NCBI GenBank assembly: GCA_031430435.1
Contig: JANPBM010000044.1
Location: 8,904-72,903 of the forward strand
Direction of reading: 5' to 3'
DNA from: Acidobacteriota bacterium
GTDB lineage: Bacteria > Acidobacteriota > Blastocatellia > Pyrinomonadales > Pyrinomonadaceae
Length of the DNA stretch: 64,000 nucleotides
The translations under genes and the position numbers were made by a program. Positions 36,310 to 50,443 of this stretch are shown here, one piece after another (position 1 is the first letter of the stretch; the number at the start of each line of letters is the position of its first letter). Below the pieces are notes generated by a model. That model saw only the letters and a program-made list of their open reading frames with translations. It did not search any database and was not told where the DNA came from.

Positions 36310-36924
36310 ATGAAAAATCTGGCTAAAGGCAGCGTTCTAATGATGTTACTTGTTTTGTCGGTAGTTTTTTTCTACTCGCAAACGCACGTTGGAGCAGCTT
36401 TCTTTTCGCAAGAAAGCGTAAATGTAATGCAACAAGTTAGTTTTGCGCAACAAGACGATAAAAAAGAAGTTCGCGCACGAGTGGTAAAAACCGAAGAAGC
36501 ATCTGTTGAACCTGCGATTGAGGGCATTGAACCCGAAGGCGTTGAAGGATTGGAAAGCGAAGCGGCTGTCTCGAAAGCGATGTCATTTTCGGCAACCTGT
36601 TACTGTTTGAAAGGACGCACGGCAACCGGAGCAGGAGTTCGACGCGGAATTGTGGCGGCTGATCCGCGAATTTTGCCGCTCGGCACACGCATCAGCGTCA
36701 GCGGTGGTTCACACAGCGGAACATATTTGGTCGCAGACACAGGCGGTGTCATCAAAGGTCGCATTATCGATATTTGGGTGCCGAGTTGCGCCGAAGCAAT
36801 TCGCTTTGGACGCAAACGTGTTTCCGTAACAATTCTCGGCAGAGGCGGAAAAAAAGCATCCGATACAAAAAAAGATAAAGTAAAATCAACCGTTAAAACA
36901 AAAACTATTAAAAACAAAAAATAA
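36310..36924 (+). CDS. 3D domain protein (MltA/YuiC-like cell-wall-binding/lytic domain), secreted
   Basis: SATCYCLKGRTATGAGVRRGIVAADPRILPLGTRISVSGG...YLVADTGGVIKGRIIDIWVPSCAEAIRFGRKRV matches the 3D-domain consensus. The RBS AAAGGAG lies 11 nt upstream of the ATG at 36310. Confidence 0.7.
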   Translation: MKNLAKGSVLMMLLVLSVVFFYSQTHVGAAFFSQESVNVMQQVSFAQQDDKKEVRARVVKTEEASVEPAIEGIEPEGVEGLESEAAVSKAMSFSATCYCLKGRTATGAGVRRGIVAADPRILPLGTRISVSGGSHSGTYLVADTGGVIKGRIIDIWVPSCAEAIRFGRKRVSVTILGRGGKKASDTKKDKVKSTVKTKTIKNKK

Positions 36925-36948
36925 TTTATAACCGTTTATTATAAAAGC

Positions 36949-36990
36949 AAAAAAGGGCGAGCCGAAAATTACGGCATCGTCCTTTTTTAT
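36949..36990. terminator. Bidirectional intrinsic terminator between convergent genes (A6-GGGCGAGCCG...CGGCATCGTCC-T6)
   Basis: Imperfect GC-rich hairpin at 36954-36982 flanked by an A-run and a T-run. Confidence 0.6.
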
Positions 36991-37038
36991 TCCAAACCGG
37001 GTTTTTACTGACCAACTTTTATTATATTTCGTTTCCGG

Positions 37039-37779
37039 CTACTTTTTGCGCGTTGTCTCAGCAGTTTTTATAATAGAAAATTCTTTTGATTTAATACGAA
37101 TAAATTTTGCGAAAGCTATTTCGTGTTCACTTTTGGGTGCAACCAAGCCCAAACACATTTGTACAAAATGCAGTTGATTATCTGAAACAGGTTTCCGTTT
37201 CCCATTCGCCAAGGATTTATAAAATTCAAAGTGTCGTAAAATCAATGCTTGTTCATATTCTGTCAATTCGAGCTTGGGAATCCTGTTATTAAGTTCAAAA
37301 TGTTCAAAAAATTCCCTGCAACTCGGCGGAATTTTTACCTTATTCCGGTTAAGTTCCTCAATTAAATCATTTAGTTTGCCGAATACCTGTTGATTACTCA
37401 GCCGAATCAAGACAATTTCAAGTTTTTTACAATCCTCTGCTTTTTGGCGATCTTTTTCAATTTGTGGCAAAGATTCGTGGTATTTCCCATCTATTTCAAT
37501 CGCCAACCTGTATTTCGGAAAATAAAAATCCAAAATCCATTTGCCGCAAATCGCCCACTCCCGCTTGAACTTACCGACGAAAAACCCATTATCAACGGTA
37601 TTTAGTATTTGCTCGAACTTCCGTTCGGCATTAGTCGGGTTTTCTAATCGTTTCTTTGCAAATTTGTGAGCAGGATCGCTGTTTTTACAAATAAAATCCT
37701 TTGAATTGAAGTGCTTTTCACCAATTATGCCGGAGTATAACAGTCCTCCGAAAAATTGTTTTCTTCTTCTCTTTTTCAT
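37039..37779 (-). CDS. DUF559 (Vsr-like endonuclease fold) domain protein with uncharacterised C-terminal domain
   Basis: PTNAERKFEQIL...WILDFYFPKYRLAIEIDGKYHE...LEIVLIRLSNQQVF matches the DUF559 consensus (T.aE..lw...DF.....l.IE.DG..H). The locus is visibly AT-rich. Confidence 0.5.
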   Translation of the reverse strand: MKKRRRKQFFGGLLYSGIIGEKHFNSKDFICKNSDPAHKFAKKRLENPTNAERKFEQILNTVDNGFFVGKFKREWAICGKWILDFYFPKYRLAIEIDGKYHESLPQIEKDRQKAEDCKKLEIVLIRLSNQQVFGKLNDLIEELNRNKVKIPPSCREFFEHFELNNRIPKLELTEYEQALILRHFEFYKSLANGKRKPVSDNQLHFVQMCLGLVAPKSEHEIAFAKFIRIKSKEFSIIKTAETTRKK

Positions 37780-37859
37780 TTAAATTCATTTCAAGAAAAT
37801 TTTTCGTGCAGATGAGAATTGTGCAAACTTCAAATATTATAAATTGAAAACATATTTTA

Positions 37860-38261
37860 CTATTTCGCCGTTTTCGCCAACTTCACAATCATTTCCTGTC
37901 CTTTATTTTCTTCCAGCGTAAAATCAACCTTATCGCCGACTTTTAAGCCGTCAAGCATCTTTTTATCTTTAACGTAAAACTCCATCAGCATTTTCGGCAT
38001 CATTCCTTTTATTTCCTCGTGGTCAAGTTCGATTGAAACGAGTTCAAGGTTAATTTTTGTTACGATTCCTTTGCTTTCACCGAGCTTAACTTCTTGGTTA
38101 GCTTGGGGTTGCGGTGTTGTTTGAGTCGGCGAAACACTTGGAATCACAGACGGCGAAACACTTGGAGTTTGTTTCGGCGCTTGAACAACTTCAGTCAATT
38201 TCGGTTGCCCGCACGCAATTAAAAATGTCGCAATAAACACAATAAATATAATTTTTTTCAT
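37860..38261 (-). CDS. CusF-like periplasmic Cu(I)/Ag(I)-binding lipoprotein
   Basis: Lipobox FLIACG. The C-terminal domain GIVTKINLELVSIELDHEEIKGMMPKMLMEFYVKDKKMLDGLKVGDKVDFTL resembles CusF (the H...M.M motif). Confidence 0.5.
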   Translation of the reverse strand: MKKIIFIVFIATFLIACGQPKLTEVVQAPKQTPSVSPSVIPSVSPTQTTPQPQANQEVKLGESKGIVTKINLELVSIELDHEEIKGMMPKMLMEFYVKDKKMLDGLKVGDKVDFTLEENKGQEMIVKLAKTAK

Positions 38262-46539: not shown

Positions 46540-47067
46540 TCACTTTGCCGGGCTTCGACTGCGGGTAAATTCGGCTTTCGTAACGGCGTAAAAAAAGCAT
46601 TCCATTTCGTAGTGTTTTTCAACTTTCTCGCGTTTCATTCCGAGCTTTTCCATAATTCGCCATGAACCTGTATTGGCAGGCGAAGCAACGGCGACGATTC
46701 TTTCTAAATCGGCAACATTAAACCCGTAATTGAGCCAAGCGGTTGCCGTTTCAAAACCGATTCCGCGTTTCCAAAACGGCTGAATCATTCCGTAACCGAC
46801 TTCAATTTCTGACGTTTCGCCCAACGGTTGAAGCCCGCTCCAGCCGATCATTTCGCCGGTTTCTTTCCAAATCATCGCGTTCATTCCAAAGCCGTATTTT
46901 TCGTAACAATCGATATAAAAATCAAGCCGTTTCGTGATTGCTTCGGGGTTTTGCAAAATTCGTCCGCCGAGATATTCGATAACCTCGTCTTCGGAACGTA
47001 ATTCGATCAGTTTTTCTAAATCATCGTGTGTAAATTCGCGGTGAATCAATCTTTCAGTTTCGAGCAT
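46540..47067 (-). CDS. GNAT family N-acetyltransferase (RimJ/RimL-like), tandem paralog 1
   Basis: MLETERLIHREF..., a GNAT core (...KRGIGFETATAWLNYGF), and the conserved M.KLGM motif. The start is chosen by homology with its paralog. Confidence 0.6.
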   Translation of the reverse strand: MLETERLIHREFTHDDLEKLIELRSEDEVIEYLGGRILQNPEAITKRLDFYIDCYEKYGFGMNAMIWKETGEMIGWSGLQPLGETSEIEVGYGMIQPFWKRGIGFETATAWLNYGFNVADLERIVAVASPANTGSWRIMEKLGMKREKVEKHYEMECFFYAVTKAEFTRSRSPAK

Positions 47068-47560
47068 ATTTTTCTTTTGTAATCGTGTAATGAACCAAAT
47101 CCGTGCCGTAATAATAGCCGATGTGGTCAAAAGTCATTCCGATTTTTTTCATCACGGCTTGCGAACCTTCGTTTTGCGGGTTCGCACACGCGACAATTTT
47201 ATCTAAATTCAATTCGTTAAAACCGTATTGCAAGCAAATTTCCGCCGCTTCGGATGCAAAACCTTTTTTCCAATGTTTTGCCGAAATCGCGTAGCCGACC
47301 TCAATTTCGTTTGTTTCGGTCAAAATCCAAAGTCCGCACCAACCGATAAACTCGTTTGTTTCCTTTAGGATAACGGCACAAAGACCAATTTTATCCGATT
47401 CCCATTTGGACGAAACCAGTTTCACCCAATTTTCGGCTTCACGGCGATTTTGCGTTTCACGGATAAATTTCATCACATCGGCATCGGAACGCATCGCAAA
47501 AACCGCGTCAATATCGTCTTCGTTCATCGGACGTAAAAATAATCTGGCTGTTTCAAGCAT
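47054..47560 (-). CDS. GNAT family N-acetyltransferase (RimJ/RimL-like), tandem paralog 2
   Basis: MLETARLFLRPM..., and KKGFASEAAEICLQYGF. It is paralogous to the downstream gene, and the start is taken at the ATG at 47560. Confidence 0.6.
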   Translation of the reverse strand: MLETARLFLRPMNEDDIDAVFAMRSDADVMKFIRETQNRREAENWVKLVSSKWESDKIGLCAVILKETNEFIGWCGLWILTETNEIEVGYAISAKHWKKGFASEAAEICLQYGFNELNLDKIVACANPQNEGSQAVMKKIGMTFDHIGYYYGTDLVHYTITKEKYARN

Positions 47561-47575
47561 AGTTAAAAAGTTTAA

Positions 47576-47713
47576 CGCAAAGTCGCAAAGTCGCAAAGTT
47601 ATCTGCACTTAAATCGTATTTTGAGTGATTCAAATACGGGAAAACTTCGCCGTTCCGCGTCTTTGTAACTTTGCGTTAAAATACTTCTACGCTTTAGTTT
47701 ATACAACTTTGCG
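47576..47713. repeat. (CGCAAAGT)x3 tandem followed by two inverted ACTTTGCG copies: dispersed palindromic repeat element, copy B
   Basis: Tandem 8-mers at 47576-47599 and inverted copies at 47667-47674 and 47706-47713. The element lies in the divergent region between the GNAT and sugar-transferase genes. Confidence 0.6.
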
Positions 47714-49242
47714 TGATAATCTTGAACCGAAAAATGCAATCTGAAATTCAAACAAAATCCGTTGGAAGAATGCCGAGTTGGATAATGCCGAGTATTAAAT
47801 TCGGTATTTTGCTGACTGATGGTTTGCTCGCGGTTCTGTGTTTTATGATTGCGTTTGCGTGGCGTGAAAATGATGCTTTTTTTCAACTGAATTCGTGGAA
47901 TTGGGCGCGTGAATTTTCACCTTACGGCGTACTTTTACCGTTTGTTGCGGCGATTAGAATTATCACCTTCAAAACACAGGATTTATACCGTTTGCGTGGT
48001 GAATTTTCGTTTTTCGACGACGCGGTAAAAGTTTTCAAAGCAGTTTCAATCGGCACGCTTTTGATGGTTGCAACGGCTTTTTTGTATCGCGGCGGATTTG
48101 AATTCGGTGATTTTTCATATTCACGTTTAGTCTTTGCAGCGGATTTTGCATTTGCATTCTTAGTCTTTTGTTTATTTAGATTTACGGTGCGATTTGTGCA
48201 GATTTTGGCACGCAAAAATTCGATAAATTTGATTCCGACGTTGGTTGTCGGCAACGGACGCGAAGCCGAAATTGTCATCAATGAAATGCAGACGAAACGC
48301 GAACTCGGTTATCGAGTAATCGGCGTAGTTTCCGATTCACGATTCACGATTGACGATTCACGGTTTTGCGATATTCCGATTGTCGGAACGCTTGATAATT
48401 TGCCTGAAATCGTTGTCGAAACAGGTGCGAGCGAAGTAATTATCACCGAACAGAATGTTTCGAGCGAGGTTTTATTCGATGTAATGATGCGTTGCGGACG
48501 GCGAAAAGGCGTGGAATTTAAACTCGCGCCGAATTTATTTGACAGTTTGCCGAGAAAAACAAATGTCGAACAAATCGGAAGTTTACCGATGATTCAACTT
48601 TTTCGCCAACCGCTTTCGCCCGTTTCGCAATTCGTCAAACGGCTCGAAGATGTAATAATCGCTTTATTTACAACAATTATACTTTCGCCGTTGACAATTT
48701 TAATCGCAATTTTAATCAAACTCGATTCAAAAGGAAACGTTTTTTACAAGCAAAAACGAGTCGGCATGGACGGCAGACAATTTTCGTTTTATAAATTTCG
48801 GACGATGCAAGCCAACAACGATGACAGCGAACATCGCGAATATCTAAAAAATTACATCGCCGGCGAAGCGGAAAATATCGGCGAAGAAACTGTTTTCAAA
48901 CTCGACGATGCTCGCGTAACCCGAATCGGCAAACACCTGCGTCGATTGAGTTTAGACGAACTGCCGCAAATATTTAACGTTCTTCGCGGAGAAATGAGCA
49001 TTGTCGGTCCGCGTCCGCCAATCCCGTACGAGGTCGAAGAATACAACGCCACGCAACGCCGCAGACTCGATATGAAACCCGGAATTACAGGTTTGTGGCA
49101 AGTGTCGGGGCGAAATCGGCTGACGTTTGATCAAATGCTCACGCTTGATGTTTTTTACATCGAAAATTGGTCGCTGTGGCTCGATCTAAAAATAATTCTG
49201 AAAACAATTCCGGCGATGATTCGCGGCGACGGAGCGAAATAA
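47713..49242 (+). CDS. Polyprenyl-phosphate sugar phosphotransferase (WbaP/exopolysaccharide-type bacterial sugar transferase)
   Basis: N-terminal TM helices, a central CoA-binding-like domain, and the C-terminal Bac_transf domain ([30 protein letters not shown]...[21 protein letters not shown]). The true start is probably the ATG at 47734. Confidence 0.8.
48334..48361 (+). repeat. Heptanucleotide tandem repeat (GATTCAC)x4, one variant unit, inside sugar-transferase CDS
   Basis: GATTCAC GATTCAC GATTGAC GATTCAC encodes [12 protein letters not shown]. The unit length is not a multiple of 3. Confidence 0.7.
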
Positions 49243-49253
49243 ATTGGATAATA

Positions 49254-49667
49254 CTATAAGTTTTCGTAAGCTCTTTCAATAAATTCCAAATAAAATAATT
49301 CTATATCCAATGATTGCAAAGCACATTTTAAAACATCTTTTTTGAGATCATAAGGCAATTCATTTTTTAGCAAGATAACATTGTCCACAATTTTGGAATT
49401 TAAAATACTTGAATCAATTTCGTAAACTTCATCTAATTCTACCCAAGTATCCGAATTAAACCAACAAGTGTTTTTTGGCAGAAAGTAGTTTGCGGGTTTA
49501 TCTTTGATTTGGCAACCTTTGTTCATACCTTTCCGATGTATTTTTGAGGTAGTTTTAACCGCAAGATAGTTTGTGCCAAAATCAGACAAAATTATTATTA
49601 ACTTGTCGAGAGTTGTACCGTCTGCAAATTGAAATTGTTTGTCGTAGAGAATTGCTCCGCAGTTCAT
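49254..49667 (-). CDS. Hypothetical 137-aa protein, downstream partner of Panacea-domain gene (candidate toxin)
   Basis: It overlaps the upstream gene by 4 nt and sits in the same AT-rich islet. No recognisable motif. Confidence 0.35.
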   Translation of the reverse strand: MNCGAILYDKQFQFADGTTLDKLIIILSDFGTNYLAVKTTSKIHRKGMNKGCQIKDKPANYFLPKNTCWFNSDTWVELDEVYEIDSSILNSKIVDNVILLKNELPYDLKKDVLKCALQSLDIELFYLEFIERAYENL

Positions 49668-50272
49668 TTATAGTTTTCCAAAAAGACTTTCCTTTCTTCC
49701 GCAATATGCAAAATAGTTTGTTTTTGAGTTTCGTTAAGTTTAATCAGTTCATATTCATAAGGAATTTCCGCATGTTGTTTGTCTTCTTCAACCCAAACTT
49801 TAAACCATGGCATACCTTCTTTGTGGGTATATTCCTCCATTTCATTTCCTGTATCTAACATAAATCGCTCTGAAATATCTTTGAGCAATGCTATTTCTCT
49901 TCTCGTAAAGTATTTTTCTTCAAATGCTTTTTTACTTTTGAAAGAAATCGTTTCAAAACCACCTTTTTCAATTTTCTTTTCAACTATAAAATGATCATTA
50001 AATTCTTGCTCATTTGAATCAATAGCATTGTGAAGTTCTTTTGGCACAGGACCCATTTTCCAAGCATAGTATTCATAGTTTGTAACACTTCTGCCTGTTT
50101 CCTTAAAATGTTCAAAGTCTAGAATATAAAGCAATTTGTACATTTTCTTTTTATTGCAGAGCGAAGTATGCTCCAAGAAATATGTAATAGCATTAAATGC
50201 TTTTTCTTTTTTGTGGTTAATAATCATTATAATTTTCTCCTGATAATAGTTGGTATTATCGGTAGTAAACAC
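49664..50272 (-). CDS. Panacea domain (DUF4065, SocA-like antitoxin) protein
   Basis: KMYKLLYILDFEHFKETGRSVTNYEYYAWKMGPVPKEL matches the DUF4065/Panacea core (KL.KLLYf.D......g..it...Y.a...GPV). Confidence 0.55.
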   Translation of the reverse strand: MFTTDNTNYYQEKIIMIINHKKEKAFNAITYFLEHTSLCNKKKMYKLLYILDFEHFKETGRSVTNYEYYAWKMGPVPKELHNAIDSNEQEFNDHFIVEKKIEKGGFETISFKSKKAFEEKYFTRREIALLKDISERFMLDTGNEMEEYTHKEGMPWFKVWVEEDKQHAEIPYEYELIKLNETQKQTILHIAEERKVFLENYK

Positions 50273-50406
50273 AAAGCTGTTTCACAAATGACACAACTTT
50301 CCATTATTATAGCTTATATTCCGGGTTATTTCCAGAAATCTGCGTTTTAATAAAAAATTTATTTGACGAATTAAAATTTTAGGAGTAACCTCATCAATTA
50401 TTGAGA

Positions 50407-50424
50407 TTGTGAAACTTTTCTCAA
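50407..50424. promoter_or_regulatory. Rex-type operator-like palindrome TTGTGAA-ACTT-TTCTCAA 20 nt upstream of ndh
   Basis: 13 of 14 positions match the Rex consensus TTGTGAA-N4-TTCACAA. It is embedded in a larger ATTGAGA...TCTCAAT inverted repeat. Ndh is a canonical Rex target in Firmicutes. Confidence 0.45.
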
Positions 50425-50443
50425 TATCGAAAAGGAGAAAAAA

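Follow-up and report, generated by a model that had tools for sequence, protein, structure and literature searches.

A Panacea antitoxin gene overlapping the gene of a candidate MazF-fold toxin in an AT-rich islet of an Acidobacteriota contig

What is encoded by two small overlapping genes that lie, between a sugar-transferase gene and ndh, in the part of lowest GC content of a 64,000-nt stretch of Acidobacteriota DNA (the window)? The initial annotation, made from the letters and the list of open reading frames (ORFs), saw here an antitoxin with a Panacea domain, translationally coupled to a 137-aa protein without recognizable motifs, and suggested that the latter might be an undescribed toxin. 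We judge the toxin-antitoxin reading of this coupled pair to be right. Taken together, the data described below make it probable that the two genes, panA (positions 49664-50227, minus strand, 187 aa) and panT (49254-49667, minus strand, 137 aa), constitute a PanAT module that is functional and whose toxin cleaves RNA. The novelty of the partner turns out to be of a more limited kind than had been supposed, as its predicted structure has a classical toxin fold.

The assignment of the upstream gene to the Panacea (DUF4065) domain is well reproduced by profile comparison. The motif MYKLLYILDFEHFKETGRSVTNYEYYAWKMGPVPKEL, on which this assignment had been based, is present in the ORF, and the hidden Markov model (HMM) SocA_Panacea (PF13274) from Pfam matches PanA with E=1.2e-19 and 71.7 bits (the gathering score being 25.7), with profile positions 2-112 of 113 covered. 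No helix-turn-helix (HTH), PAD1 or ZBD domain was detected by the Pfam scan in the N-terminal part of PanA. As it has no second domain, this protein is a stand-alone Panacea, and belongs to the type described by Kurata et al. as having no N-terminal domain. PanAs encoded next to homologues of PanT form one alignable subfamily with 28-59% identity to PanA from the window, and their divergence goes with the divergence of the toxins (26-64% identity). Moreover, PanA has a conserved C-terminal tail, where IPYEYxL is followed by a helical segment (residues ~155-187).

The genes overlap by the tetranucleotide ATGA (49664-49667, minus strand), as originally described. In particular, panA reads ...AAC TAT AAA TGA and panT begins with ATG AAC TGC, so that ATGA is common to both genes and contains the stop codon (TGA) of panA and the start codon (ATG) of panT. 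Since stop and start overlap, this arrangement points to translational coupling of panA and panT. The same organization is observed at all independent loci from our set (14/14; 26-64% toxin identity). At each of them a Panacea gene is located directly 5' of the toxin gene on the same strand, and the genes overlap by 4-26 nt, the overlap being either 4 nt, as here, or longer (14-26 nt). Co-occurrence of the two genes in other genomes, on which the initial annotation had made its proposal depend, is thus found at every related locus of this set. The set comprises five close relatives from metagenomes and metagenome-assembled genomes (MAGs), four genome loci (Pyrinomonadaceae, Chloracidobacterium, Candidatus Onstottus, and Nitrosovibrio), four distant members, including one from a Calditrichota MAG, and one viral contig from IMG/VR. 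The Panacea identity of the upstream gene was established from precomputed Pfam matches or by an HMM scan, which was passed by six further loci.

The toxin candidate, PanT, belongs to no recognized family, and in this respect the original description stands. No credible match for the 137-aa protein was found in Pfam, PADLOC or PHROG, and NCBIfam yielded only sub-threshold ones. Comparison with the sequences of PDB chains produced nothing meaningful, whether the query was the single sequence, a profile of 11 sequences, or a profile of 150 sequences. The word-indexed search identified 11 close relatives with 53-64% identity, one of them recorded as originating from a Pyrinomonadaceae MAG. An exhaustive HMM search with the alignment of these close relatives yielded 558 cluster representatives with E<=1e-3, of which 280 had E<=1e-10, so that the family, clustered at 50% identity, numbers 558 clusters or more. 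Most members are 130-150 aa long and match end to end, and not one of the 150 members that were scanned (0/150) could be assigned to a family of Pfam or NCBIfam. Where the source of a member is known, it is nearly always a metagenome or a MAG, and the protein is labelled there as hypothetical. No match was obtained by tblastn when two family members were compared with 72,556 plasmid and 50,697 phage records.

Several individual matches and deviations were observed in this family. The window PanT has a weak, near full-length match (49257-49667) to NF045891, the 'Mbov_0400 family ICE element protein' of Mycoplasma (ICE, integrative and conjugative element), with E=0.0025 and 18 bits versus the cut-off of 55. 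This match is seen in only one of the 150 members, and may be due to chance or hint at a MazF-like protein of such elements; we do not rely on it. One of the 150 scanned members matches DUF7689 from Pfam (E=1.3e-4). In some members the MazF-like domain is followed by a C-terminal extension of 40-170 residues, namely in P0029 (202 aa), P0050 (312 aa), P0079 (199 aa), P0097 (182 aa), and P0010 (178 aa; L004:6001-6537), and these may be fusions or proteins with altered C-termini.

According to the structure prediction, PanT has the MazF/Kid/CcdB fold, that is, an SH3-like beta-barrel with a C-terminal helix. Hence, while the protein is indeed not covered by the family models, the predicted fold does not support the idea that it represents an undescribed kind of toxin. 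The barrel and the first C-terminal helix of the model correspond to MazF, and the second C-terminal helix (residues 124-136) is extra. Two residues of the model deserve particular attention, K22, situated in strand beta2, and T40, situated at the end of strand beta3; we take these strand positions to match those of the catalytic residues in MazF structures.

The same two residues were brought together with the MazF catalytic residues by hhalign, used to compare 133 PanT-family members with four to six sequences of the MazF type. The latter were taken from the set of B. subtilis EndoA, PemK from locus L017, E. coli MazF, Kid, S. aureus MazF, and ChpBK. Apart from PemK, which was taken from the locus, individual verification covered EndoA, whose sequence was compared with 4ME7 and 4MDX. 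The resulting alignment is co-linear and full-length, though weak (probability 11-20%, pairwise E ~1e-3, with a shallow MazF profile), and it places K22 on R25 and T40 on T48 of B. subtilis MazF. Both residues are strongly conserved, each being retained in 131 of the 133 PanT-family members. Catalysis by MazF depends chiefly on Arg25 and Thr48, and in MazF4 from M. tuberculosis the catalytic Arg is naturally replaced by Lys (PMC7354611). As K22 and T40 would correspond to the catalytic Arg and Thr, and as Lys is found in this position in MazF4, we consider RNase activity of PanT likely.

Other near-invariant positions of the PanT family are G4, D16, G17, G51, C52, T74, W75, C115, and D121. The two cysteines, C52 (131/133) and C115 (132/133), fall into different elements of the predicted fold, namely a barrel strand and the first C-terminal helix, and we know of no equivalent of either in MazF.

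A number of observations weigh against attributing PanT to RNases of the MazF type. No sequence-level method ties the PanT family to MazF confidently. In particular, the Pfam model PemK_toxin (PF02452) does not match the window PanT, and matches only one of the 150 members, with E=0.038, while the NCBIfam models of MazF and PemK match neither the window PanT nor the 150 members of the family. The raw alignment of 150 sequences compared with a single PemK sequence in hhalign had a probability below 1%. Extension of the MazF side was of no help either, as the homologue search with the six-sequence MazF alignment returned as its best 120 matches only near-identical EndoA proteins (91-99% identity), which confirmed the EndoA sequence used here but did not improve the profile comparison. 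The mapping of K22 and T40 itself rests on the weak alignment plus the topological agreement. Moreover, PanT has features that are absent from MazF, namely a very short beta1-beta2 loop, the segment GCQ..DKP.NYF.P, the residues C52 and C115, and the extra C-terminal helix, and therefore its activity could differ. Finally, in the part of the survey by Kurata et al. covered here, the MazF-like PanT of F. xanthum (cluster T8) is not toxic in E. coli, and that of C. bovis (T5) is listed as toxic only, not as a member of a validated toxin-antitoxin pair (PMC8832971).

With these reservations, the locus may be described as a bicistronic PanAT module, that is, a type II toxin-antitoxin system. Its toxin, PanT, would be a divergent protein with the MazF/PemK fold, most likely acting as a homodimeric, ribosome-independent endoribonuclease, with Lys22 in the role of the catalytic Arg of MazF and Thr40 in the role of the catalytic Thr. 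Cleavage of RNA by PanT would stop translation. Owing to the translational coupling, PanA would be made first and in excess, and would neutralize PanT by direct protein-protein binding, where the C-terminal tail of PanA (residues ~155-187) may bind the toxin and occlude its RNA groove, as does the C-terminus of MazE. Loss or inactivation of PanA, possibly caused by proteolysis, by loss of the cassette, or by a trigger such as phage infection, would set the toxin free.

The surroundings of the pair fit an accessory insert. Both genes lie in an AT-rich islet that extends from the stop codon of the sugar-transferase gene (49242) to the start of ndh (50444), and thus occupies positions 49243-50443. 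The visibly low GC content reported initially is confirmed: the 1.3-kb segment starting at 49151 has GC 0.31, the lowest value anywhere in the 64 kb (mean 0.428, standard deviation 0.029) and about four standard deviations lower than the mean. The identities of the flanking genes were also given correctly, as Pfam domains on the identical public contig show a 485-aa CoA_binding_3/Bac_transf sugar transferase on one side and a 400-aa Pyr_redox_2 protein of the NDH-2 type on the other. The GC content of the panA-panT pair is 7-20 points lower than that of the longer flanks in 12 of the 13 loci compared (the window included), the lone exception being L017, whose flanks already have GC 0.34. This deficit, observed across the loci, fits a mobile accessory module.

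The neighborhoods of homologous cassettes are unrelated to one another, and among the neighbors there is, for example, a TonB receptor gene. The L001 cassette is situated between transposase genes, the L004 cassette adjoins the gene of a giant helicase (DEAD/YjiV_N), the L014 cassette adjoins a large ORF whose translation, judged by eye only, resembles a DNA methylase, and the L020 cassette is found near Hypoth_Ymh and SNIPE/T5orf172 genes. No direct or inverted repeats that could mark the insertion ends were found in the flanks of the window cassette beyond the chance level. An empty site, with the sugar-transferase gene and ndh adjacent, was sought by a metagenome scan with the Ndh protein, and no relatives were found; hence insertion is argued from nucleotide composition and from the diversity of the homologues' surroundings. 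On these grounds the panA-panT cassette was probably acquired horizontally.

Two of the related loci have further toxin-antitoxin genes in the vicinity. At L017 (L017:3453-7112) the PanAT pair is directly upstream of a phage integrase gene, and a canonical PemK_toxin/MazE_antitoxin pair follows ~2 kb further on, so this prophage-like region holds two MazF-fold toxins with different antitoxins. At L021 (L021:4420-6800; IMG/VR UViG_2820164216_000002) the PanAT homologue resides on a predicted viral contig, and ~1 kb downstream, on the opposite strand, two short ORFs of 92 and 105 aa overlap each other and resemble, by eye, a BrnT/BrnA-type pair.

The Panacea ORF can be extended to a GTG at 50272 (49664-50272, minus strand, 202 aa), but this GTG is unlikely to be the start, as the ATG at 50227 is the start of panA both in all aligned homologues (12/12) and in the gene as annotated on the public contig L009, which is identical to the window. 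A Shine-Dalgarno-like AGGAG (50237-50241, minus strand) is situated 9 nt 5' of this ATG. Farther upstream of panA, at 50306-50334 on the minus strand, a consensus scan yielded a candidate sigma-70-like promoter (TGGAAA, a 17-nt spacer, and TATAAT), with 10 of 12 positions matching; this is a pattern match only.

Elsewhere in the window, the second-lowest GC (0.352, in 1.3-kb segments) after the toxin-antitoxin islet is observed at ~36800-38150, where a further accessory insert may be present. At 46540-47608 (minus strand), upstream of the sugar-transferase gene, two ORFs (196 and 184 aa) follow each other in tandem; they are alike and have, by eye, the look of GNAT-type acetyltransferases.

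Is the pair an active toxin-antitoxin system at all? PanT could lack toxicity or have decayed, or PanA and PanT could act jointly in another process, in which PanA does not neutralize its partner. About 44% of Panacea proteins in the survey by Kurata et al. (1004/2272) have no reliably predicted toxin partner, and in the covered part of the same source some predicted MazF-like PanTs were non-toxic in E. coli (PMC8832971). Among the homologues of PanT there is one, from a Candidatus Onstottus arcticum MAG (L013:3998-4420, JBBPIE010000009.1), that is frameshifted near residue 95 and split over two frames, with panA intact; this frameshift may be decay of the toxin and would then fit selection against its activity, an assembly error being an equally good explanation. 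In the window, however, both ORFs are intact, and the order of antitoxin and then toxin, with an overlap, is kept in 14/14 loci across phyla. Moreover, conservation of the putative catalytic residues and of the core ones in over 130 diverse members speaks for an activity under purifying selection, and we consider an inactive or unrelated pair unlikely.

If PanT is active, it could still share only its fold with MazF, being a CcdB-like poison of DNA gyrase or having some other non-RNA target. CcdB of the F plasmid needs its terminal Trp-Gly-Ile to poison gyrase, whereas the C-terminus of PanT has no terminal Trp-Gly-Ile and is not conserved beyond residue 122. The near-invariance of the residues aligned with the catalytic Arg and Thr also speaks against such a target, and a gyrase poison seems very unlikely here. 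As for the antitoxin, PanA has the same Panacea domain as SocA, after which PF13274 was named, and by analogy with the type VI system SocAB it might be a proteolytic adaptor that delivers the toxin to ClpXP. The match of PanA to the NCBIfam equivalog SocA_antitoxin (NF047745; E=6.5e-6) is weak, however, with 25.9 bits versus the cut-off of 190, so PanA is not an orthologue of SocA, and the partner has the predicted MazF fold rather than being SocB. In addition, PanAs validated with other toxins form complexes with them and neutralize them directly, according to the covered parts of two studies (PMC8832971; PMC10440598). The adaptor scheme is thus very improbable for this locus. A type III system was rejected as well: no RNA repeat array is present and the sequence upstream of panT is the coding region of panA, TRF having produced two trivial 2-copy repeats, neither of them upstream of panT, and there was no Rfam match.

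The remaining alternative is compatible with the toxin-antitoxin mechanism, as it concerns the biological role of the module. In abortive-infection defence against phages, PanA would sense a phage cue and release or activate the toxin. Ernits et al. (2023) proposed a mainly sensory function for Panacea and connected toxin-antitoxin networks with defence systems (PMC10440598). Homologous cassettes at L001, L004, L014, L017, L020, and L021 have mobile or defence-like surroundings. On the other hand, PADLOC models match neither PanA nor PanT, the window cassette is flanked by ordinary genes of the housekeeping type rather than by a defence island, and no homologue was found by tblastn in the plasmid and phage records. 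A defence role of the cassette is therefore possible, and we mention it only tentatively.

A toxin-antitoxin module with an RNA-cleaving PanT thus continues to be the reading that we prefer, and within it one may ask how far PanT has departed from MazF. It could belong to a separate clade of effectors with the MazF fold, which would depend obligately on PanA and occur chiefly in uncultured bacteria, and whose own invariants (Lys instead of the catalytic Arg, C52/C115, GCQ..DKP.NYF.P, the truncated beta1-beta2 loop, and the extra C-terminal helix) could give it unlike biochemistry or regulation. If this were true, such effectors might act on another RNA (tRNA or rRNA, for instance), be controlled by thiol or redox state, or be released by a PanA that senses phages. 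We regard this extension as rather doubtful.

The new part of the finding is modest. It reveals no new mechanism and resolves no open question, but describes an unannotated, mostly environmental, PanA-coupled family with a putative Lys/Thr catalytic pair and invariant cysteines of its own, and thereby adds an unannotated branch, dedicated to PanA, to the MazF superfamily. A domain-less protein beside a Panacea gene has been resolved into a classical toxin fold by structure prediction. From the alignment of the family one could build a new profile HMM, which would replace the labels of hypothetical proteins in genomes of Acidobacteriota and in other environmental genomes.

The closest known systems are found in the Panacea (DUF4065) survey of Kurata et al. 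(2022), which yielded 1,268 predicted PanAT pairs (PMC8832971). There, the toxins of P. moraviensis and B. ruminantium had no match in the NCBI domain database and were linked by HHpred to RNases of the EndoA/PemK/MazF type; they specifically inhibited protein synthesis and were neutralized by their own PanAs (PMC8832971). In the part of this source covered here, the MazF-like PanT clusters of Dataset S1 are T5, T6, T8, and T25, the cluster representatives being WP_116809181.1, WP_083201923.1, WP_073354223.1, and WP_026646888.1. The validated pairs are PanT(T6):PanA of Pseudomonas moraviensis and PanT(T25):PanA of Bifidobacterium ruminantium, where the toxin is detectable as PemK, and in the MazF-like rows PanA lacks an N-terminal domain, its gene precedes that of the toxin, and most gaps are -1 or -4 (PMC8832971). 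Stand-alone Panacea can neutralize directly, as was described by Ernits et al. (2023) (PMC10440598). Genera of the PanT family were not found in the examined part of Dataset S1, and look-ups of PanT clusters provided no RefSeq accessions to be compared with it.

Compared with the classical systems, the present one differs in both components. PanT fails the HMM of the MazF/PemK/Kid/EndoA family (PF02452) and has 9-21% identity to MazF proteins, and its partner is a Panacea protein rather than MazE or PemI (AbrB or ribbon-helix-helix) as in MazEF and PemIK. Unlike CcdB, PanT has no conserved C-terminus of the CcdB type, and unlike in the type III systems of ToxN, AbiQ, and CptN, its partner is a protein, PanA. 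From the MazF-like PanATs of Kurata et al., compared by description, the present family differs in being almost entirely metagenomic or MAG-derived and in having no plasmid or phage match, and its profile link to MazF looks weaker than the HHpred probability of 99.5% given for T5. With the same PanATs it shares the stand-alone PanA, the antitoxin gene in the first position, the overlap of -4 or -1, and a domain-less hypothetical toxin with a structure, predicted in our case, that resembles MazF, EndoA, and PemK; the combination of PanA with a MazF-like toxin is thus a known and validated one.
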